Shown here: piece by piece, positions 2,004 through 44,488 of the stretch
How the letters are laid out: each line of letters begins with the position of its first letter
Position numbering within the stretch: position 1 is the stretch's first letter
DNA from: Candidatus Magasanikiibacteriota bacterium
GTDB taxonomy: Bacteria > Patescibacteriota > Patescibacteriia > Magasanikbacterales > UBA922
Reading direction: 5' to 3'
DNA length: 64,000 nucleotides
Assembly: GCA_043809645.1 (NCBI GenBank)
Contig: JBDROX010000036.1
Location: 1,713 to 65,712, forward strand
Program-made: the position numbers and the translations under genes
The notes under the pieces: generated by a model
Told to the model about the DNA's origin: nothing
Seen by the model: the letters and a program-made list of their open reading frames with translations, nothing else
Databases searched by the model: none

Positions 2004-3611
2004 TTATTTCACGCGAATAATGATATATCCATCATTTTCAAAAACTATTTCAAAGTCATTGGGCCTATGGGAGACAAAGTTTCTGAAATTTTCTGAAAGT
2101 GGACTAGTCTTCGAACTGAAGATATAGTCTGATTCAAAAATATTGTGCACAGCATGCTGTACAGCGTTAATCTGGTGCATTGTGCTTAGATCCATGCAAG
2201 CCTCTCTCTGGGGGCAATATAGGCCTCTGAGGATCAGATTATACCAGGTCCAGTAGAGATGCTGGTCATAGTTGTACATGAATACAGGATCAAATCCAGC
2301 AATATATTGAATGTCACTATTTTCAAAGAATAGGGGAGCAAAGGAACTCCAGTTCGTAAGGAAAACAGTCTTTCCTTTTGATACAATACTACTCAGCTCA
2401 TCAGTGGCCTCATAAAACTCCTTTTTCTTTTCTAGATCACCAACGGCAATGTTGTTATAAAATATGACAAGGTTTTTACTACAGAAAAAAGTAAGAATCG
2501 CCAAAATGAGAAGAGTAGGTATATTTTTTCTTCTCTTGCTTTGATTATTGATAACCTTAAATACATCATATTTTGATGCCTGCACAAACACATATACAGA
2601 AAGAAGAAATGTCATTGGTACCCAATATTCCACCATACGAGGAACTAACACTGTGGCTACAAGTGATAAAGAGCAGAACGTGAGTAAAACAAATGAATCC
2701 CCATCCAATTTTTTTTCTGAATGAAGGTAAAGAGCCAGAGAGGAGAAAAAAAGGAAAAGAGTAACTGTAATAATATTTCCAAGCATGATAGTAGAGAAGC
2801 TCATGGTTGCCAGTTCAGATCCACTGGGGAGAGTTATGCCGGCAAGTTTCAAATAGAAGATCTCGAATGTATGGACGAGGATAACGTGAGTATATCCAAT
2901 AGTTTGTGGATGCAGAATGAGTCCAAGGAGAACGCCACCAAATACTGATATGATGGGTCTCAGATCAACTATCTTCTTTTCATAATATATCGATATGCTA
3001 AAGAGAAGTGAAAGAAGGAGAAATGGCGCAATGAAGTTGTACATGAGGATGTAGAGCACCGAGAAGAAGAATGCCCAAACATACCTTTTCTTTGAAAGCA
3101 AGTAGAATCCTGCAATCATGAGAGCTATAGATATGACAAATGGTCTACCCAGAAGAATACGGAATGAGAAGATTGTGGATGATAGAAAAAAAAGAAGAGT
3201 TAAAAGAAAATTATGCTCCTTTAGTTTTTTCCACGCTATGAGATAGAAGAAAAGGAAAATAAGAGTAGCCTGAAGTGCACTTACAAGCTTGAGTGAGTTA
3301 ACTGGCCCTAGAAATCTATTTACTTGTCCTGTGATGAAGTGGTGGAGTACATACGGGTCTGCTGGTAGAGTGCTAAAGAAGTGGAATGCAATCCATGGTT
3401 TCACTACAGAAAACTTTCCACTCTCATACACTATTTGGCTATGTTTCGCATGATAGTATGCGTCCGAGCCATAGAGGCCCTCGTGAGCAAACTGTGCATA
3501 CCCAAAGATAGTGCAAAAAAAGAAAAACACCAATAGTGCTCGTACCAATGGTGATTTAAAGACTTTTTTAATTTTGACAGGCAGAAATATAGTGAAGAAT
3601 TGCCTAATCAT
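2004..3611 (-). CDS. large polytopic integral membrane protein (about 12 TM helices plus C-terminal soluble domain); GT-C-like or VirB6-like candidate
   Basis: 535 aa, many hydrophobic helices, first loop motif SDAYYHAK, about 150-aa C-terminal soluble domain; overlaps the next gene by 4 nt (operon). Confidence 0.4.
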   Translation of the reverse strand: MIRQFFTIFLPVKIKKVFKSPLVRALLVFFFFCTIFGYAQFAHEGLYGSDAYYHAKHSQIVYESGKFSVVKPWIAFHFFSTLPADPYVLHHFITGQVNRFLGPVNSLKLVSALQATLIFLFFYLIAWKKLKEHNFLLTLLFFLSSTIFSFRILLGRPFVISIALMIAGFYLLSKKRYVWAFFFSVLYILMYNFIAPFLLLSLLFSISIYYEKKIVDLRPIISVFGGVLLGLILHPQTIGYTHVILVHTFEIFYLKLAGITLPSGSELATMSFSTIMLGNIITVTLFLFFSSLALYLHSEKKLDGDSFVLLTFCSLSLVATVLVPRMVEYWVPMTFLLSVYVFVQASKYDVFKVINNQSKRRKNIPTLLILAILTFFCSKNLVIFYNNIAVGDLEKKKEFYEATDELSSIVSKGKTVFLTNWSSFAPLFFENSDIQYIAGFDPVFMYNYDQHLYWTWYNLILRGLYCPQREACMDLSTMHQINAVQHAVHNIFESDYIFSSKTSPLSENFRNFVSHRPNDFEIVFENDGYIIIRVK

Positions 3612-4291
3612 GCTTTGTGGATAATATTTTCTACAGCACCCCAGCTGCTCTCGCCAGTTTCTGGAATGAGAATAACAACATCATCTCCAGCATTTCCTTT
3701 ATAAAATGTTGCAGATGCTGTCAGGATCTTGTATGGTCTTCCTCCAAAAATAACAGACCAATTTCCGTTCTCATCAGAGACGAGCTCTCCTGTTACACGT
3801 TTTCTGTTTACCTGTTGGATTTGTTTATAGATAAATGAACCTCTATTTGTAATAGTGAGCTTCATGATGTCTCCCTCAACCAGCTTTGATTTACTTGCGT
3901 AGTTCGGTGGAACACTGTATTCCTCTCCATCTTGACCGATCATCTTCTCTCCGGTGAAGACGCCTTCGACAATACGTTCACCACTATCAAAAACTGAGGT
4001 TTCGGGTTGGTCACCAACCATCTTTCTCACTTTCTCACCACCTACAATTCGAAGGAGAGAATCTAGTTGATCCTTGATGCACAGAATACTTTTCTTCACT
4101 TCATCGAGGTCTACATCTTTTTCACTTACTTTTTCTTCTATTGATTCTCGTGTGTTGCCAAGGGTCAGAGGGTTCAGATTTAGACTGTCTTCGTCTAATT
4201 CTGAATTTTGAGTTGGTGGAAAAGTTGGAATATGTTTTCCTTTGAATAGGTCTTTTGCTTTGTCGTCAAGTACGCTATTGATATTGTCCAT
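3608..4291 (-). CDS. hypothetical soluble protein, acidic N-terminus, in operon with the VirB4-like ATPase
   Basis: 227 aa ORF, no TM helix, translationally coupled to the downstream membrane protein gene. Confidence 0.4.
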   Translation of the reverse strand: MDNINSVLDDKAKDLFKGKHIPTFPPTQNSELDEDSLNLNPLTLGNTRESIEEKVSEKDVDLDEVKKSILCIKDQLDSLLRIVGGEKVRKMVGDQPETSVFDSGERIVEGVFTGEKMIGQDGEEYSVPPNYASKSKLVEGDIMKLTITNRGSFIYKQIQQVNRKRVTGELVSDENGNWSVIFGGRPYKILTASATFYKGNAGDDVVILIPETGESSWGAVENIIHKA

Positions 4292-4331
4292 ACACTTTTC
4301 TGTTTATATTTGTTATTTGTTTGTATATTCC

Positions 4332-6899
4332 CTAAAGACTTGCTTCTATAGAGTCAGTATCTGCTTGTCCTTCTGACTCACCAAGCTTTGTCCTTTCCAT
4401 AATCTCTGACTCTACGATCATTTGGTCACGCCCATACTTGAGTCTGGAGAGCTGCTTAATGGCATTTCCAAGTTCTTTATTTCCTTGCATTGGTGGAAAT
4501 GTCTGCATGAGGAATGGTTTTGAAGCAGTATTATCAATTAGGAGTTTTGTATACCAGGAGAACATTGGGGCATTGAGTAGGTCGTACGCACCAAATGTTG
4601 GTGCAAACTCCTTTGCAAGAACCTCTGAATCATCTGGTCCAATGCGGGCAGAGAACATAGTACCAGCATTACCGAGGACTGCGTCACGGATACCAGACCT
4701 TCCTTTGTCGTCTGTCAGCTGACCCATGTATTGATGGGCAATGATAAGGTCTAGCTTATATTTTCGAGCCTCAGATAGGATAGTTGAGATAGAGTCAGTA
4801 ACAAAGTTCTGGAACTCATCTATATAGAGATAAAAATCTTTTCTATCTTCTTCTTCCTGATCAGCCCTAGCAAGGGCCGCCATCTGAAGCTTGGAAACAA
4901 TAATGAGTCCGAGTAGTTTGGCATTTACCTCACCTGTTTTTCCTTTTGCAAGATTCACGAGAAGTATCTTTTGATTATCCATAATATCACGGAAATCAAA
5001 ACCTGACTTTTGCTGACCCATGATGTTTCTCATCATTTCATTCTCTACGAAACGACCAACCTTGGAAATAAGGTAGCCAAGCATTTCTGATTTATGAAAG
5101 TCACTTGTTTTTGCCATTTCCTTCTCCCAGAATGCTCGGACGACTGGGTCTTTTAATTTTTTCAAATAGACTTTTACATAGTCATCATCTGTGAACATGC
5201 GTGGAATATCAATGATAGTCCCTGGGTTATCCAGGTCGGCCATGAGTGTGAGCATCACATTACGCATATTGTGCTCGAACATTGGTCCGATCATTTCCGG
5301 TGGAAAGAGTTTGTAGAAAATTGAGATCATCTCCTGAACCGCGAAGTCTTTCTGATCCTCACTCTTCGCCTCTAACATATTGAGACCAATAGGACGTTCT
5401 GTATCAGACGGATCGAAGATCACAACATCGTCAGCACGTTCTTTTGGTATATGACTGAGGATATACTCAACGAGGTCTCCGTGTGGGTCGATAACACAAA
5501 CTCCTTTTCCTTCATGAATATCCTGGATAGCCATTCTAGATACGAAGACAGACTTACCACCACCAGACTTACCAATAATGTACATGTGTCGCCTCCTGTC
5601 TCCTTCCTTCATGAAAACATTTGTTTTTGAACCCCTATAATCAACATATCCGAGGAGGAGGCCTTCTTTTGGAAGGTTTGATGGGGGTGGGGCTTTTCTT
5701 CCTGTGAGCCATTTGACGTTTGGTGCTTCTGTAGAATGGAGCGGAAGGTGCCAGAATGAGGCCATTTCATCTGTTGTCAGTAGGATCTTTCTCTTCTCAT
5801 CAAAACTCCTGTAGATGAAGTGGCGGATAAGACCAGTTTGCTTTTTTGGAACAATGGCTTGAAAACTATTTCCATATCGATACAGATTGTACTGCCCGAA
5901 GGAGCCTATGAGGTCATCTAGATGGAGCCTGGCAGCCTCTTCCTGATCAGCAACACTCAGAAGTCTAATAGTCACATCCATGCCACCACGACTCAGCTTT
6001 TCCTCAAATCCCTTTAGCATTTCTTCTTCCATACCCGAGAGCTGGTATGGTGTGCCATCTTTTCTTTTCTCAGGATTTTGGAGCGTTTCAGTGAATTCTT
6101 TTGATCCTTTTTGGAAAGCTCTCCCAAATGCACTTCTCTTTGCAATTTGCTCGAACTTCTCACCTTTTTTTATATCACGAACCATCGTTACACCCTGCTT
6201 TCTCCAAGTCTTCACTGCACTTCTGATCACGAACTGTATTGCCATGGAGCTGTTATTGTCCTGATATTTTGATAAGACATTTAGAATGGAAGCTAATGGG
6301 TCTGATTCCATTATTTTGTATGATTTGAAAGGGAAGACACCTTTTTGCTGGGTAGTAAGGTAGGCGCCAACAATTTTACTTTTTTCAGAAAAAATATTGT
6401 AATCCTGAATCTGGTCGATCTGTGCGTGTGGATGCTGTGCATTGATCTGCTGTTCCATGAACGATCGCATCTTATTCGGGATGTCTATGTAGAAATAGAT
6501 CAGACCACCTGTAGCAACTATTTCAAAAGACATGTGGTCATTTCTACCACCAAACCATCTTGAAAATCCTTTTTGTGCTCGGAGGGCTGCTACTGCAGAG
6601 AACAGCGTCTCTGTCATTCCTATTTCCTCCTTTATCTGCTCGAGTCTGTCATCTGTGCTTGCCTGTCCACCGGCTCCTTCTGACTTTCTCTCCTTTGGAA
6701 CGAGGATTTGGAGTACAGACCTGCCAAAGGCTTTGTTTGCTTTTCCACGGTTCTGAATGAGTGTTCGAACCAGGAGGAGTATCGCAAAAACAGTAAAGAC
6801 AATGATGAGAACAATGACAATCCAAAAAAGAAGATTCCCAATTCCAGAGGAATTTAAAAGGTTTGTTTGATTGAAACCAACAAAGAATTGGAAAAACAT
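4332..6899 (-). CDS. VirB4/TrbE/TraC-family type IV secretion-type P-loop ATPase with N-terminal TM helix (VirB3-VirB4-fusion-like layout)
   Basis: 855 aa; N-terminal TM; Walker A YIIGKSGGGKS near residue 445; IDPHGD; Walker B LYIDEFQNF; ARKYKLDLIIAHQYMGQL (the RK...Q motif of T4SS ATPases, AAA_10 / CagE_TrbE_VirB type). Confidence 0.55.
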   Translation of the reverse strand: MFFQFFVGFNQTNLLNSSGIGNLLFWIVIVLIIVFTVFAILLLVRTLIQNRGKANKAFGRSVLQILVPKERKSEGAGGQASTDDRLEQIKEEIGMTETLFSAVAALRAQKGFSRWFGGRNDHMSFEIVATGGLIYFYIDIPNKMRSFMEQQINAQHPHAQIDQIQDYNIFSEKSKIVGAYLTTQQKGVFPFKSYKIMESDPLASILNVLSKYQDNNSSMAIQFVIRSAVKTWRKQGVTMVRDIKKGEKFEQIAKRSAFGRAFQKGSKEFTETLQNPEKRKDGTPYQLSGMEEEMLKGFEEKLSRGGMDVTIRLLSVADQEEAARLHLDDLIGSFGQYNLYRYGNSFQAIVPKKQTGLIRHFIYRSFDEKRKILLTTDEMASFWHLPLHSTEAPNVKWLTGRKAPPPSNLPKEGLLLGYVDYRGSKTNVFMKEGDRRRHMYIIGKSGGGKSVFVSRMAIQDIHEGKGVCVIDPHGDLVEYILSHIPKERADDVVIFDPSDTERPIGLNMLEAKSEDQKDFAVQEMISIFYKLFPPEMIGPMFEHNMRNVMLTLMADLDNPGTIIDIPRMFTDDDYVKVYLKKLKDPVVRAFWEKEMAKTSDFHKSEMLGYLISKVGRFVENEMMRNIMGQQKSGFDFRDIMDNQKILLVNLAKGKTGEVNAKLLGLIIVSKLQMAALARADQEEEDRKDFYLYIDEFQNFVTDSISTILSEARKYKLDLIIAHQYMGQLTDDKGRSGIRDAVLGNAGTMFSARIGPDDSEVLAKEFAPTFGAYDLLNAPMFSWYTKLLIDNTASKPFLMQTFPPMQGNKELGNAIKQLSRLKYGRDQMIVESEIMERTKLGESEGQADTDSIEASL

Positions 6900-6914
6900 A
6901 TGTAAAAAAATCAG

Positions 6915-7502
6915 TTACTTCTTTGGGAAGTACTGATTTTTGAGTGACATAATCTTGTCTGCACGTATCTTCGCTTCTTGTTCTAAGAAAAATATATTAA
7001 TACCTGGCAAAATTTTCAGCCATTCCAGGAGGAGTTTAAAAATACTTTTTACCTTACCCTTCGCAGAACTCAAAATGGCTCGAATTTTGAAAGCCGTTTC
7101 TTCACCTTTTATCTTGAATTCTTGTTGCTGCACTGGTGTGAGTTCCTTGAATGCATCAGCGAGACCATCTTCCATAATTTTCTCAACTTTCATTGTGATC
7201 TCATCTCTAACCTGAGGAACAGCTGTAAGTTTTTTCTTTTTTGTCCGTCTCAATTTCTTTCTCAGAGAATCAATTCCTTGGTCTATAGTTTCAACTTTTT
7301 GTACAGAAGGATCTATTTCTGGGGAGACTTCTGGAACTCTTTGTACTTCTGGTCGTGAAATTTCTGGTATTGTTTCTGAAAGTGGCAGGGTAGTTTCTGA
7401 TATTGGAGATATTAGAGGAGGAACAGCTTCTACTGGGGCTGCCTGAGATGTGTTAAAGTCAAGAACCGGAATCTCTTTTGGGTTTGGGTTTGTTGTAGCC
7501 AT
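6915..7502 (-). CDS. hypothetical protein, Pro/Glu-rich N-terminus, coiled-coil, C-terminal hydrophobic segment
   Basis: 195 aa ORF immediately upstream of the ATPase gene (16-nt gap). Confidence 0.4.
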   Translation of the reverse strand: MATTNPNPKEIPVLDFNTSQAAPVEAVPPLISPISETTLPLSETIPEISRPEVQRVPEVSPEIDPSVQKVETIDQGIDSLRKKLRRTKKKKLTAVPQVRDEITMKVEKIMEDGLADAFKELTPVQQQEFKIKGEETAFKIRAILSSAKGKVKSIFKLLLEWLKILPGINIFFLEQEAKIRADKIMSLKNQYFPKK

Positions 7503-7693
7503 AAGTCACGATGTACAAATCACAAGACACATATCAAAATTAATACAGCATATTGGAGGCATATATTTGATATGTGGAGTGTATTACGTGTTATATAGAA
7601 TAGTATACCAGAAGCAAAGAAAATTGACTATAAGTTTAGTAGAAGTAGTGAAAAATTAAACAGCATTGTGAAACGTACACATGCAATATAATG

Positions 7694-8548
7694 TTACTTT
7701 TCAAAAAAGATGGGAATTTCCAGTGCATCATCATATTTTGGAAGGTCAGATGGATTATCTTTCTGTAGAATAAGTGTTCCACGGTCGTAGAGTGCTGGCA
7801 CCTCGAAATGAAGTTCCCCCTTGAACGGAACGAATTCTTCTGTCATCCATTCATCCTGCGCAGTAATATACCCTTCTGCAATGATTTTACCATCCCAGTC
7901 TGTGAGAATGACAGGTGCATCACCCTCGAAATACCATACTCCTCTGGCTTGTCCAGTGATCTGAAGAGGGCTCGAAATCCCAGTGTTTGGTCGTGGAGAA
8001 TCAATTCGTATACTATCAGCTTTTTCAAGCTCATTTCCAATATTTTCTGTAAATGTTTCCCTACCATGACTACAGCTTCTCGGATAGCTTTCCATGATTG
8101 GATTTTCAGCCTCAACGCAGTCAGAGAATGTTAAAATAGTGGAAGAATCATCTGAGTCAATACTACTTTGAATCAAGTTTTTTGAGAGAAAAAAGAAAAC
8201 AACAATTCCCAGAATAAATAGGCCGAGAAGTACTAGCATCATTTTTTTCTTCAAGTCAATCTCTTTTTTTGTCATCGACCTGAGGTCTTTCTCATGTTTT
8301 TTCTCCAGAGATGCTCCCAAAGCAACGCCGATCGGTAATCCAAGAGCTGGACCTAGGGCAATATTACCAATTGCAATGCCAAAAGGTATGCCAATTGCAA
8401 TGCCAATTGCAATGCCAAGGCTCATGTAGTGACCTTTTGGATGTTTTCCTGTCCTCTTAAATTCCTCCTGTTTTATTTTGAATGCTGGTATAGATACTAT
8501 TCCAATAATAATTATCATTGCGAGAATGAGTAACTGCGCTGTATACAT
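7694..8548 (-). CDS. membrane-anchored protein with Gly-rich TM region and C-terminal Gmad2-like immunoglobulin-like domain
   Basis: 284 aa; GIAIGIAIGIPFGIAIGN repeats; CVEAENPIMESYPRSC motif; SPRPNTGISSPLQITGQARGVWYFEGDAPVILTDWDGKIIAEG...WMTEEFVPFKG matches the Gmad2 Ig-like fold. Confidence 0.55.
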   Translation of the reverse strand: MYTAQLLILAMIIIIGIVSIPAFKIKQEEFKRTGKHPKGHYMSLGIAIGIAIGIPFGIAIGNIALGPALGLPIGVALGASLEKKHEKDLRSMTKKEIDLKKKMMLVLLGLFILGIVVFFFLSKNLIQSSIDSDDSSTILTFSDCVEAENPIMESYPRSCSHGRETFTENIGNELEKADSIRIDSPRPNTGISSPLQITGQARGVWYFEGDAPVILTDWDGKIIAEGYITAQDEWMTEEFVPFKGELHFEVPALYDRGTLILQKDNPSDLPKYDDALEIPIFFEK

Positions 8549-8557
8549 ACTGTTTAC

Positions 8558-9037
8558 TTATTGGATAATAATATTAGTGCTACCTGGAAGTCGCTCTCTA
8601 ATAATCTTGAGATCCTGCTCTGAATATGGATTGCCAGAGAGGCGAAGCCATTTCAATTTTTTTAGATTTCCGATCTCATGTGGAAGTCCTGTAATTCCGT
8701 TGTTTGAGAGGTCGAGGAGTTCGAGATCTTCTAGCTGTCCAACTTCTGCCGGGACGCCTGTCATAATATTGTCACTCAGATCAAGAACTTTTAGGTTTTT
8801 AAGCTTATTAATTTCTGCTGGGATGGCACCGCCAATTTCATTTCCAGAAAGGTCAAGCTCTTCAAGCTTTTTATTCTTGAAAACATCGGCAGGGATTTCT
8901 TTTAGTTCCTGATTGCTGAGATCAAGTTTGAGGCTATTTGCAATTTCGACATCTCCGTCTGTTTCAGCAGTATCATTCAGACTACAGCCAGTGAATAGGA
9001 CGGTGATAGCGATGAGAGGGAGGAGGTATTTTTTCAT
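8558..9037 (-). CDS. leucine-rich-repeat lipoprotein
   Basis: Start chosen at MKKYLLPLIAITVLFTGCS (lipobox LFTGC); at least five LxxLxLSxNxIxGxxP LRR units. Confidence 0.65.
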   Translation of the reverse strand: MKKYLLPLIAITVLFTGCSLNDTAETDGDVEIANSLKLDLSNQELKEIPADVFKNKKLEELDLSGNEIGGAIPAEINKLKNLKVLDLSDNIMTGVPAEVGQLEDLELLDLSNNGITGLPHEIGNLKKLKWLRLSGNPYSEQDLKIIRERLPGSTNIIIQ

Positions 9038-9047
9038 ATATTTTTTA

Positions 9048-9251
9048 TTACGATTTTGGTACGATGCGAGCGAAATACATGCCAAGGAGTACAAGTACCG
9101 TACCAATATACACAACATAATTTGACACTGTATATGATTTTGTTATTATCGAGCCAAGACGGTAAAGAAGGAGAGCAAGACCAATAATAAAAAGGGCAAT
9201 ACCAACTTTTTTAAATTTTACGGGTACGAAACCTGTCGGCTCATTTGGCAT
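9048..9251 (-). CDS. small two-TM membrane protein (VirB2/VirB3-like size class; function unknown)
   Basis: 67 aa, two hydrophobic helices. Confidence 0.35.
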   Translation of the reverse strand: MPNEPTGFVPVKFKKVGIALFIIGLALLLYRLGSIITKSYTVSNYVVYIGTVLVLLGMYFARIVPKS

Positions 9252-9262
9252 ATGAGAAGGTG

Positions 9263-9493
9263 TTACGAATCTTTTTTAAGCAATAAATAGACTCCATAGG
9301 GGAAGAGGGTGAATATGCCAAGAACACCAATAAGACCAACAAAGCCAAGGATAATATTTATCACATGACTAAATGTCGCTACCTCCGGCTCTCTTCCAGT
9401 GATAACATTTGAAATAGAGAATATAACAAGGGATCCAATAATAAGGATGAATGGAAGAGAGATAAAGAGTGGTCCTTTAGTTGTTTTTTTCAT
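9263..9493 (-). CDS. small two-TM membrane protein (VirB2/VirB3-like size class; function unknown)
   Basis: 76 aa, two hydrophobic helices, stop adjacent to the DUF2164 gene. Confidence 0.4.
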   Translation of the reverse strand: MKKTTKGPLFISLPFILIIGSLVIFSISNVITGREPEVATFSHVINIILGFVGLIGVLGIFTLFPYGVYLLLKKDS

Positions 9494-9748
9494 CTATTTT
9501 TGTTTCAAAAGATCTAAATCAATTTCAATATCATCGGAGTGCTGGCGGAGTGCGGCAGATGCATTATCTATACCTTCATTATAGATGTGCTCTCCAATAT
9601 TGTCTAGGAAAAAATCTAGAATTTCTTCAGCAGCGATCACACCGATCTGCTCATCTCGCTCATTATCAAAAAAACTAATAATTTTTTCTATAGAAGTTTC
9701 TCTTTTATCTTTTGGAAGAAAATCCCATTTTCGTTTGATTTCGTCCAT
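9494..9748 (-). CDS. DUF2164-family small protein
   Basis: 84 aa; FFDNERDEQIGVIAAEEILDFFLDNIGEHIYNEGIDNA resembles the DUF2164 consensus. Confidence 0.45.
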   Translation of the reverse strand: MDEIKRKWDFLPKDKRETSIEKIISFFDNERDEQIGVIAAEEILDFFLDNIGEHIYNEGIDNASAALRQHSDDIEIDLDLLKQK

Positions 9749-9764
9749 ATGTGTCGGAAGTTTT

Positions 9765-10823
9765 TTATTGGATAATCACAGGAATCTCGAGTGCATCGTC
9801 ATTTTCTCGCAGGTCAGATGGGTTGTCTTTCTGGAGTATCAGTGTTCCTTTGTCACTATAGCTTTCTTGTTTTTCAAACGTGAGTGTTCCTTTGAATGGG
9901 ACGAAGTCCTCTGTCATCCATTCTCCTTGTGCCACACCAAACCCTTCTGCAATAATGAGTCCGTCCCAGTTTGTAAGAATGATAGGGAAGTCTCCTTCAA
10001 AGAACCATGTGCCACGGGCTTCTCCTGTGATTTGGAGTGGGCTAGAGATGGTTGCGTTTGGGCGAGGGGAGTAGACACGGATGATATTCGTCAAAGCTCA
10101 TGATTCATAGTCAAAAAAGATACTTTCATTGCGTCCCATCTTTAGCAAAACTGAATGTTCAAATTTTTCTACTGTATCTACTACTTCATTATTGGACATC
10201 AGTCCTCTTACAATTTGTTCGTCCTGGATTTGCCAATCTGAAGGATATTGAAAAAAAATACCGAAATTTTCATTTGTATATGAAATCATCTTATCGCTCG
10301 TAGAAGTAATTTTTACCACAGACGAGCACTGACCATCCAGGCATTCGCATGGATACTTCCTATACTTATCACACTCAGAACAATCGCAATCACTTCCCAG
10401 CTTGCAACTAGATGAATAGCTGGCACTCTCTTCTGGGCCTGGAGAGTGGTTCCACATCGGGCAGACGACTACACATCCATTATTTCTGCAGGATGCACTG
10501 TACGGGCAGTTCGATTGGATCGCATATTCCATTGGTACACTACAATCCGAAGATACTTCGCAAGTACTTCCTACAGGTTTTTGAATACTTTCTGTATAGG
10601 CTCTATCTCCATGACGACATTGCCGAGGGTAGCTCTCCATGATCGGGTTTCCAGCGTTCACACATTCTTCGAAGGTGTTTACTACTCCAGAAGGCACCTG
10701 AGGAGCAGAATTATCTCTCCCTTCTCGGACTTTTGGCATGATGAGGAAGAATATAATAAAGACTATGAGAATTCCAGGGAGTATGACAACAATAAAGTTT
10801 TTTATTGTTGGTTTGGTATTCAT
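9765..10823 (-). pseudogene. paralog of the 7694-8548 Gmad2 protein, interrupted by one in-frame TGA (ORFs 10098-10823 and 9765-10094 are in the same frame)
   Basis: N-terminal ORF has TM plus NPIMESYPRQC plus a Cys-rich region; after the stop the frame continues ...DYES*ALTNIIRVYSPRPNATISSPLQITGEARGTWFFEGDFPIIL (Gmad2 domain) collinear with the intact paralog. Confidence 0.5.
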
Positions 10824-10828
10824 AGATT

Positions 10829-11029
10829 TTATTTTTTGCTAGTCCTCTCCACGATTAACAGAAAGTCTACTTTTGCCGTGGCTCCCATGAGTTGGAATGT
10901 TGGTTTTACATTTGGAATGACAGAAAGAACTTCTCCATCGAGATTATTGAGGAACTGCTCCAAATAATCTTGCATATTATCACTCTTGACATCTATACGA
11001 TGCACTTTATATTTCTTTTTTTCTTCCAT
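10829..11029 (-). CDS. hypothetical small protein (first gene of the minus-strand array)
   Basis: 66 aa ORF, 5 nt upstream of the next gene. Confidence 0.3.
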   Translation of the reverse strand: MEEKKKYKVHRIDVKSDNMQDYLEQFLNNLDGEVLSVIPNVKPTFQLMGATAKVDFLLIVERTSKK

Positions 11030-11323
11030 ATGTTTCTATTAAAAATAGTAAGTAGTCTATTTGCTGTTTAGTCTCATAAAAAACATCGACGAAAACATCA
11101 TAGCAGAAATAAGAAATATGGCTCCGTCAGAGGTGTTTCCTTCAAAAAAATAATTAATACTTGGGAGTAAGAATGCGAAAGCGGAGATGAGTCATGGATA
11201 TGGTCCATGAAACCAAGATTATTTTTCTCTGTTCATATGCATATATTAAGAAAAAAATTATGTTAATCCTATTCAGAGTAAATATGCTACGAAAATTCTT
11301 TTCATCTCTTACTACTAAGCTCT

Positions 11324-11554
11324 CTACAATTTTAATTCTTCAATACTTTTATCTAAAGCCTCTTCAATCTCACCCAATGGATCATCAGGTTTTGTGTAAT
11401 CAGGAGGATATACTTTTTCAATGATTTCCTCCAAATCTTTTATAGGATCAGCAGGTTTAGTGTCCTCAACTAATTCATCAATGAAATCCTTCTTTTTTTC
11501 TTTAATTTCTGCATCGGGTGTTTGGGATTTTATCTCTCCCTTCTGTTTTTTCAT
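11324..11554 (-). CDS. hypothetical small acidic protein
   Basis: 76 aa, Glu/Asp/Lys-rich, 4-nt overlap with the cysS start. Confidence 0.3.
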   Translation of the reverse strand: MKKQKGEIKSQTPDAEIKEKKKDFIDELVEDTKPADPIKDLEEIIEKVYPPDYTKPDDPLGEIEEALDKSIEELKL

Positions 11555-12918
11555 AGAACTATATTTTTTATTATTTGCTTTCCTTGATGGTCTTCAATAC
11601 TATACCCAAGCTTTTCAAGCTTATCACGCAATCTATCAGACTCCTCAAAATTCTTCTCATCTCTTGCCTTCTGTCTCTGATCCAGAAGTCCCTGCACTTC
11701 TTCAGGAATAGCAACGTCTCCTTCATGAGAAATGAGGCCGAGGCCGAGGATTTTGTCGAACTTGGTGATCATCTCTTGATTTATGGCTTTCTCCTTCAGT
11801 CCTTTTGACAGAGCAGCAAGTGCCTCTGCAGTATTCAGATTATCTGATAGTGCATCGAAGAATGCCTTCTCCACAAGTGGATCTCCTGGCGCATCTTCTG
11901 GAAGGTCTTTTATTTTTCTTCTGAGATTCTTCAGCCCTTGCTCAGCAGCCTCTATAGCTTCCCAAGAGAACGTGAGCTGCTTACGATAGTGCACCTGCAG
12001 GAGGAAGAATCGATAGGCTAGGGGAGTGAGCCCTTTTTCTTCGAGAGTTGCTAGTGTGAGGAAATTATTTTCTGACTTTGACATTTTATCCTTTTCTGTC
12101 AGGAGGAACTCACCATGCATCCAAACATTCACCCATGGTTTTTTCCCAGTTGCAGCCTCGCTCTGCGCGATTTCATTACTGTGATGCACTGGAATATGGT
12201 CGATGCCACCACAGTGAATATCGAACTGCTCGCCAAGATATTTCGTAGCCATAGCAGAGCACTCTATATGCCAGCCTGGAAATCCTTTTTTCCCAAAAGC
12301 ATCCCATTCCATTTGGCGCGCTCTACCATCCTTAGAAAATTTCCAAAGAGCAAAGTCATGTGCATTTTTCTTTTCACCAATACCCACTCGAGCACCTGCC
12401 TCCAGATGTTGCTTGTCGAGCTGTGCGAGCGCACCATAGTCGTCTATAGTTGTCGTATCAAAATAGATACCGTCAGATGTTTCATAGGTGTGTCCGCCAT
12501 CAATAAGTTTTTGTACGAGATTAATCTGTTCCTGAATATTGTCTGTAGCTTTGCACCAGATGGTTGGCTCTAGAATATTGAGCGCTGCAATGTCATTTTT
12601 AAAGGCCTCTGTGTAGAACTCTGCAATCTCCCATGCTGTCTTTCCTTCACGCTTCGCACCCTTCTCCATTTTATCTTCTCCACTGTCAGCATCATCTGTC
12701 AGATGACCAACATCTGTGATATTCATCACATGATTGACGTCATATCCTTTGTATTTGAGCATTCGACGCAGAATATCTTCGAACACATATGTCCTCAGAT
12801 TTCCCAGATGGGCATAGTGATACACAGTTGGGCCGCAGGTATAGAGGCCGACCTGTTTTCCCTGAATAGGTACAAATTCTTCTTTCTCCCTTGTTCTGGT
12901 ATTGTAAAAATTGAGCAT
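11551..12918 (-). CDS. cysS: cysteinyl-tRNA synthetase
   Basis: 455 aa; CGPTVYHYAHLGN (HIGH region), KMSKS, CysRS-specific zinc-binding cysteines. Confidence 0.9.
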   Translation of the reverse strand: MLNFYNTRTREKEEFVPIQGKQVGLYTCGPTVYHYAHLGNLRTYVFEDILRRMLKYKGYDVNHVMNITDVGHLTDDADSGEDKMEKGAKREGKTAWEIAEFYTEAFKNDIAALNILEPTIWCKATDNIQEQINLVQKLIDGGHTYETSDGIYFDTTTIDDYGALAQLDKQHLEAGARVGIGEKKNAHDFALWKFSKDGRARQMEWDAFGKKGFPGWHIECSAMATKYLGEQFDIHCGGIDHIPVHHSNEIAQSEAATGKKPWVNVWMHGEFLLTEKDKMSKSENNFLTLATLEEKGLTPLAYRFFLLQVHYRKQLTFSWEAIEAAEQGLKNLRRKIKDLPEDAPGDPLVEKAFFDALSDNLNTAEALAALSKGLKEKAINQEMITKFDKILGLGLISHEGDVAIPEEVQGLLDQRQKARDEKNFEESDRLRDKLEKLGYSIEDHQGKQIIKNIVL

Positions 12919-43807: not shown

Positions 43808-44488
43808 ATGGGACATTTTGATAGAAACAACAGAGGTGCTGGTGGATTCAACAATAGAAATTCTGGTGGAGGAAGCTTCAATAGAGGTGGGGATAGACCT
43901 CAGATGCATGATGCCACTTGCAAGAAGTGTGGAAATTACTGCCAGGTACCATTTCGACCAACAGGAAGTAAACCAGTATTTTGTAGCGACTGTTTTGGTA
44001 AACAAAATGACGGCGGAAGAGGAAGCTTTGGTGGTAGAGGTGACAGAAAATTTGGAAATAAAAAATCTTTTGGCGGTTCTCAAAATATGCACCCAGCAGT
44101 CTGTGATACATGTGGAAATGACTGTGAGGTACCATTTCGACCAACAGGAGACAAGCCAATCTATTGCAGCAACTGTTTTGGAAAAGATTCCAAAAGTGGT
44201 GGCAGTAGTAAAGGTGGCTCATGCAATTGTTCTCCAGAAATTAAAAAACTTGAGGGCAAGATTGATAGCATCCTCAAAACACTTGGTATTCCAGAACCAA
44301 AGAAGTATGTAGCTCCAATAAAGCCAGAAAAGAAAAAAGAAGAATCGAAGAAAGCTGTACCTGCAAAGACAGAGAAGAAAGAGGTAGATACAGATCCTAA
44401 GCCAAAAAAAGTAAAGAAAACAAAAGTAGCACCAAAAAAAGTAAAGAAAGCTGTAAAAAAGAAAGCTGCAACTAAGAAGAAGAAATAG
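43808..44488 (+). CDS. Gly/Arg-rich protein with two tandem CxxC...C zinc-ribbon modules and a histone H1-like Lys/Ala/Pro-rich C-terminal tail
   Basis: CKKCGNYCQVPFRPTGSKPVFCSDCF and CDTCGNDCEVPFRPTGDKPIYCSNCF repeats; tail KKVKKTKVAPKKVKKAVKKKAATKKKK; the overlapping track ORFs (43773-44312, 43751-44092, 43878-44222) are shadows. Confidence 0.55.
   Translation: MGHFDRNNRGAGGFNNRNSGGGSFNRGGDRPQMHDATCKKCGNYCQVPFRPTGSKPVFCSDCFGKQNDGGRGSFGGRGDRKFGNKKSFGGSQNMHPAVCDTCGNDCEVPFRPTGDKPIYCSNCFGKDSKSGGSSKGGSCNCSPEIKKLEGKIDSILKTLGIPEPKKYVAPIKPEKKKEESKKAVPAKTEKKEVDTDPKPKKVKKTKVAPKKVKKAVKKKAATKKKK

Follow-up and report, generated by a model that had tools for sequence, protein, structure and literature searches.

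Organisation of the locus

The locus described here lies in a stretch of 64,000 nucleotides (hereafter the window) of contig JBDROX010000036.1, from the Candidatus Magasanikiibacteriota bacterium assembly GCA_043809645.1. It consists of two open reading frames (ORFs) of the minus strand, 10098-10823 and 9765-10094, which lie in the same frame and only 3 nt apart. The first one, named N241, encodes 241 aa and terminates at a TGA (10098-10100), followed by GCT (10095-10097) and then by TTG (10092-10094), which is the start of the second ORF (109 aa). The original prediction, made from the letters alone, had described two same-frame ORFs parted by a TGA plus one codon and had read them as a split paralog of the Gmad2 gene present at 7694-8548; the arrangement was confirmed with matching coordinates, and so was the existence of two paralogous Gmad2 genes. 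We propose that in the region 9765-10823 three unrelated genes for secreted or surface proteins have probably decayed into a mosaic, located in a variable and non-syntenic spot, and that its TGA comes from a frameshift inside one of the fragments.

The Pfam Gmad2 domain (PF10648; profile length 86, gathering cut-off 25.7 bits) was found above its cut-off and over profile positions 2-84 in both copies, namely 7694-8548 (50.2 bits, E 3.1e-13) and 9765-10094 (52.2 bits, E 7.5e-14). The Gmad2 parts of the split pair and of the paralog share 70% identity across 105 aa, and the parts containing the transmembrane segment (TM) and the NPIMESYPR motif share 39% across 74 aa. GMAD2 has been proposed to adopt an Ig/FnIII-like fold, with a possible cell-wall or carbohydrate context (Rigden & Galperin 2008, PMC2732212). 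The intact paralog (P0018, 284 aa, 7694..8548, minus strand) contains a glycine-zipper membrane anchor, a second TM, an NPIMESYPRSC module (8063-8128; such modules are called NPIM below) and the Gmad2 domain (7745-8011). Its AF2 model has pLDDT values >93 throughout residues 140-284, which cover NPIM plus Gmad2, and a PDB fold search with this model returned only generic Ig-like domains, without any functional lead.

More than 1,500 Patescibacteria proteins match this Gmad2 family; a search of NCBIfam gave no named family. The members share an invariant core, composed of a TM anchor, the motif FEECVxAGNPxMESYPRQC, the linker TFTENIGNELEKxDLIR and Gmad2, with variable domains placed before or after this core, and all the 119 family matches listed are at least 193 aa long. 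In every one of the 98 members that could be scored for the two motifs, the NPIM cysteine sits 25-27 residues before PRPN. The intact paralog, which carries its membrane anchor in the same polypeptide, has this typical spacing; in the concatenated split pair, the distance would be 183 residues, as in none of the 98 relatives. The pair and the paralog have the order of the modules in common but are not collinear as claimed: between NPIM and Gmad2, the pair has ~160 residues of different origin, made up of a Cys-rich domain and one half of a PsbP-like one.

Three pieces of different origin

The first piece (N241 residues 1-170; 10314..10823, minus strand, as all features of the mosaic) is a complete unit of a TM-NPIM-Cys-rich subfamily, with a TM (10737-10799), an NPIMESYPRQC module (10608-10673) and a Cys-rich domain of ~90 aa (10314-10580). 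By blastp, N241 residues 7-170 correspond to residues 102-265 of P0084 (267 aa), residues 1-170 to 74-235 of P0121 (237 aa) and residues 48-171 to 34-157 of P0122 (161 aa), with E 1e-51 to 1e-59 and 46-58% identity. The alignments spanning TM, NPIM and Cys-rich domain come within 2-4 residues of the C-termini of these homologues, all of which terminate 2-5 residues past a '…C.SVV' motif. N241 has no stop where the Cys-rich homologues have theirs and shows 71 more residues instead. The same Cys-rich domain also ends P0002, and a word-indexed protein search with the middle region of N241 retrieved Cys-rich homologues only.

These 71 residues (N241 residues 171-241; 10101..10313) form the second piece, which is in frame with the first and corresponds to a PsbP-like lipoprotein domain, of which it covers the N-terminal ~45%. 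The GC content of this piece is ~31%, and it has neither a lipobox nor a lipoprotein signal peptide. An exhaustive HMMER search against 1.84e9 representatives was needed to identify it: P0123 was matched with E 1.5e-14 and 56% identity (query 3-71 on residues 23-90 of 175), and two other lipoproteins, P0125 and P0164, were also retrieved. The Pfam domain PsbP_2 (PF18933, ~150 aa, gathering cut-off 27 bits) gave 21.5 bits on this piece, which is below the cut-off and concerns profile positions 38-68 only; the intact homologue P0125 reaches 36 bits, above the gathering score, over positions 33-164 of 184. Since the PsbP-like homologues (175-200 aa) run ~85 residues beyond '…ESIFFDYES' and P0125 passes PsbP_2, what the window contains of the domain is limited to its first ~45%.

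The third piece (9765..10083) is a 5'-truncated Gmad2 gene remnant, with the Pfam domain at 9813-10082 and a TAA stop at 9765-9767. Its Gmad2 homology (IIRVYSPRPN…) begins where the PsbP-like homology stops (10084). The Gmad2 domain is complete, and the piece has no TM anchor, no NPIM module, no TFTENIGNELEK linker and no hydrophobic segment of any kind, its only possible start being the TTG at 10092-10094. It keeps 51 of the 54 columns conserved at >=85% (family median 52, intact paralog 50). The exact N241 protein was found, as a hypothetical protein, on one 75-kb contig only, from a Candidatus Magasanikbacteria metagenome-assembled genome (MAG), and no orthologue of the whole mosaic was found in the databases searched.

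Origin of the TGA codon

The PsbP-like homology crosses the TGA in another frame. Homologues read FFDYES-[M/I]-SF[D/G]EYES at this site, and the window gives MSFDEY (ATG AGC TTT GAC GAA TAT; 10084..10101, 18 nt) one base out of frame. By tblastn, P0164 residues 2-32 correspond to 10193-10101 and residues 33-38 to 10101-10084 in the adjoining frame, the two high-scoring segments being contiguous in the query and having base 10101 in common. A degenerate-pattern scan of metagenome contigs gave an intact homologue of 200 aa (contig L085, 7595-8197), to which MSFDEY is identical at 6/6 positions (…FFDYES-MSFDEY-ESYK…). Intact homologues have TCN-ATG (Ser-Met) where the window has TC-ATG-A, i.e. 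a base is missing between 10102 and 10101; in the DNA alignment (window GAATC-ATGAGCTTTGACGAATAT, L085 GAATCTATGAGTTTTGACGAATAT) this corresponds to a single gap column, and the missing base is not within a homopolymer. As the homology crosses the TGA in the other frame with a single-base gap relative to L085, the TGA (10098..10100) results, on this sequence comparison, from the loss of 1 nt within the truncated remnant of a PsbP-like lipoprotein gene; the homologues of the TGA-bearing piece point to a frameshift and to no substituted codon. DNA identity to the L085 gene collapses after GAATAT, and the end of the PsbP-like homology at 10084 marks the second breakpoint of the mosaic. With the base restored, the ORF would end at a TAG 19 codons later and Gmad2 would still be out of frame.

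The family spacing together with the frameshift evidence rules out that a continuous Gmad2 gene simply acquired a nonsense mutation. Among the explanations first offered for the split pair, a pseudogene due to a recent nonsense mutation nevertheless comes closest: gene decay is retained, and the lesion is a 1-nt deletion in the PsbP-like fragment, not a nonsense mutation. Over 8 nt (ATGAGCTT), the TGA region matches the 'NEL' linker codons of the paralog; this was considered as Gmad2 homology and dropped, the PsbP-like match over the same bases being much stronger. On contig L085, the intact PsbP-like gene immediately follows fusA (EF-G) and tuf (EF-Tu) (4105-8197 region).

Genomic context

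Both NPIM-family genes belong to a genome-specific stretch of 4 kb (7503..11550, minus strand) between CysRS (11551-12918) and a conserved cluster (3608-7502) composed of g195, an ATPase resembling type IV secretion system (T4SS) coupling proteins, and g231. Between the two genes lies a leucine-rich-repeat protein of 186 aa with a lipoprotein-like N-terminus (…LFTGCS; 8558-9118, minus strand), adjoined by two small double-TM proteins (9048-9251 and 9263-9493); a DUF2164 protein (9494-9748) and two small ORFs complete the cargo of this stretch.

The ATPase (855 aa, Pfam T4SS-DNA_transf and TrwB_AAD_bind, N-terminal TM) was used as the query of a synteny search that gave 80 related Magasanikbacteria loci (L005-L084). 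The order g195, ATPase, g231 is kept in all the 80 genomes, with 59-75% aa identity, and the cluster looks like a core, non-mobile feature of the lineage. CysRS is present upstream of it in 51 of the 80 loci, where its distance to g195 lies between 39 bp and 7.9 kb (median ~400 bp). Homologues of Gmad2, N241 or the PsbP-like piece were found in none of the 80 ATPase-bearing loci (Gmad2 and N241 being checked within 10 kb), nor were any genes of 7503-11550, flanking CysRS and g195 aside. Given this variable gap and this absence, we consider the stretch 7503-11550 as genome-specific cargo whose adjacency to the ATPase is not meaningful, and the functional tie between the surface-protein genes and the adjoining secretion ATPase that had been suggested is not supported. 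P0003, which has a near-identical N-terminal anchor, was rejected as a syntenic orthologue, its context being unrelated. The cargo of the CysRS-g195 gap (examined in L013, L039, L067, L068, L077, L078 and L082) includes genes of housekeeping appearance at one extreme and, in L078 and L082, Cys-rich secreted proteins and lipoproteins at the other.

Modules of the family are also found in other combinations. P0084, encoded on another metagenome contig (L089, 80-1194 region), has a glycine-zipper anchor like that of the window paralog (54% identity) and an N241-type Cys-rich tail (52%), and a separate TM+Gmad2 gene follows it after 9 nt. The anchor that the window paralog pairs with Gmad2 is thus paired in P0084 with a Cys-rich tail. 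This layout shows that tandem Cys-rich/Gmad2 gene pairs exist and that modules have been exchanged around the conserved NPIM segment; judging from these proteins, family members appear to swap their C-terminal domains at NPxMESYPRQC. The view of these genes as duplicated, fast-evolving and shuffled surface proteins is thereby supported, both by the variable domains around the family core and by the module swap of L089.

Scans for promoters and terminators gave no signals at the mosaic. A Shine-Dalgarno (SD)-like 4-mer is present within 20 nt upstream of the start in 4 of the 54 long ORFs of the window, the upstream regions being A/T-rich instead, which suggests that initiation in the window is mostly SD-independent. 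Elsewhere in the window, the region 43808-44488 (plus strand) encodes a 226-aa protein with two CxxC…CxxC zinc-ribbon-like repeats, G/R-rich spacers and a long lysine-rich tail, overlapped on both strands by long spurious ORFs.

A probable decayed mosaic of surface-protein genes

The make-up in three pieces, the breakpoints (~10300 and 10084) and the 1-nt frameshift can be read directly from the sequence. The ancestral state that we infer would have comprised three neighbouring genes of the same strand: gene A, encoding a TM-NPIM-Cys-rich protein, gene B, encoding a PsbP-like lipoprotein, and gene C, encoding a TM-NPIM-Gmad2 protein. One deletion would have fused A, at its end, to B at the point where the mature lipoprotein starts. 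Another would have taken away B from about its middle to its C-terminus, the spacer between B and C and, from C, the anchor and the NPIM module, and a 1-nt deletion in the B remnant would have shifted the frame and produced the TGA. This layout agrees with a decay by deletion of surface-protein genes that a small genome can dispense with. N241 may still give rise to a membrane-anchored NPIM-Cys-rich protein, the last 71 residues of which would not be native to it. The Gmad2 remnant, devoid of anchor, signal peptide and NPIM partner, is most likely untranslated or silent, and the frame that it has in common with N241 is a one-in-three coincidence.

Several observations weigh against such a decay. 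The Gmad2 remnant is itself undecayed (109 open codons, with the conserved columns nearly all kept as described above), which implies either very recent events or ongoing selection; because of this undecayed appearance, the events were probably recent. All three pieces share one frame, except the shifted segment of 18 nt, and this could hint at selection for the fusion. Moreover, the state preceding the deletions was not seen, the closest ATPase match having 75% aa identity, and the ancestor with three genes is deduced rather than observed. Finally, the sequence comes from a MAG, and the junctions are known from the assembly alone.

Alternative explanations

Some lineages of Patescibacteria reassign TGA, which is read as Gly (code 25) in Gracilibacteria/Absconditabacteria. 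A genome-wide reassignment (Gly in code 25, Trp in code 4) or a selenocysteine at this site would agree with this background and with the fact that just one TGA breaks an otherwise open frame. Nevertheless, TGA ends 6 of the 48 window ORFs of at least 150 aa, and it stands at the expected end of at least four genes besides CysRS, which itself terminates there at its expected C-terminus. Translation table 11 gives a coding density of 88% for the window and ORFs that reach 894 aa. TGA interrupts no other real gene of the window: 9765-10094/10098-10823 is the sole genuine in-frame pair of this kind, the three other candidates being antisense to plus-strand ORFs that read as real genes. No suppressor tRNA, selenocysteine (Sec) tRNA or tRNA with a UCA anticodon is present among the five tRNAs of the window. 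No folding is predicted for the 81 nt that surround and follow the TGA (minimum free energy -3.4 kcal/mol, z +1.14), and an Rfam scan of 1.3 kb around the TGA gave no significant match. The frameshift relative to intact homologues accounts for the TGA in any case. Reassignment is refuted for this window by the conserved genes that terminate at TGA; codes 25 and 4 are ruled out, and we regard reassignment or selenocysteine insertion as having practically no chance of being correct. Stop-codon read-through or recoding, as originally envisaged, is likewise unsupported, the TGA being a normal stop here.

An artefact of assembly or consensus, in which the junctions or just the 1-nt deletion would have been made during metagenome assembly from reads of paralogs or strain variants, has to be considered for a MAG, for a locus holding members of a family with more than 1,500 relatives and for a protein found exactly on one contig. 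We consider it unlikely: the junctions do not fall at k-mer-length repeats and 7400-11700 contains no long repeats, both flanks are syntenic with Magasanikbacteria genomes, and the long intact ORFs and high coding density of the remainder of the window indicate that indel errors are uncommon. The deleted base lies outside any homopolymer, and restoring it leaves Gmad2 out of frame. A sequencing error at the 1-nt gap would leave the conclusion unchanged. Expression of the Gmad2 piece, either by low-level TGA read-through giving a TM-NPIM-Cys-rich-(half PsbP)-Gmad2 protein or by reinitiation at the TTG 4 nt downstream giving the 109-aa product, is somewhat less probable still. The proximity of the two ORFs in one frame and the full conservation of the piece speak for it, and the absence of an SD motif before the TTG is uninformative given the rarity of such motifs in the window. 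However, the normal use of TGA as a stop, the lack of a stimulatory structure or Rfam match near it and the lack of a suppressor or Sec tRNA in the window all argue against read-through; the fusion would moreover include a PsbP-like domain cut in half, with a spacing that none of the 98 relatives shows, and the reinitiated product would be without export signal, yet the family is membrane-anchored and extracytoplasmic. It is about as improbable that the mosaic is alive, either as a nascent multi-domain surface protein or as a conserved silent Gmad2 cassette still in use, which could operate through TGA read-through, through TTG reinitiation or as a recombination donor for the expressed paralog 2 kb away; such use would fit the module swapping at the NPIM segment between this genome and L089. 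Decay of three unrelated genes remains our preferred explanation.

Significance and comparison with known systems

The locus belongs to a known, annotated family and is a gene remnant of an ordinary kind. For a phylum in which TGA does get reassigned, its analysis disposes of a misleading candidate for stop-codon recoding, and it illustrates that two ORFs in the same frame and one stop apart can arise when one fragment of a composite locus carries a frameshift. It also draws attention to an abundant, uncharacterised surface family of Patescibacteria, which pairs an anchor and NPxMESYPRQC with Gmad2, Cys-rich or other domains and which is seen here exchanging and losing modules in variable genome spots.

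Compared with the TM-NPIM-Cys-rich proteins (P0084, P0121 and P0122, unnamed and without Pfam domain), N241 residues 1-170 cover the full mature length of the homologues; these end after the Cys-rich domain, whereas N241 continues for 71 residues into a lipoprotein fragment. With the PsbP_2-like lipoproteins (PF18933; P0123, P0125 and the L085 protein), N241 residues 171-241 plus MSFDEY share residues ~23-96 at 50-56% identity, but the window copy lacks lipobox, signal peptide and the C-terminal half of the domain and carries the 1-nt deletion. Both window copies carry a complete Gmad2, like the patescibacterial 'Gmad2 immunoglobulin-like domain-containing proteins' (PF10648), of which the paralog has the standard layout; unlike them, the second copy is without anchor, module and linker and is preceded by foreign sequence. 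Finally, the mosaic resembles ordinary bacterial pseudogenes formed by deletion and frameshift in its truncated domains, in its frameshift-made stop and in its variable, non-syntenic location. It differs from them in that its remnants are still open and conserved and in that its first junction joins two domains cleanly and in frame, for which reason part of the mosaic may still be expressed.

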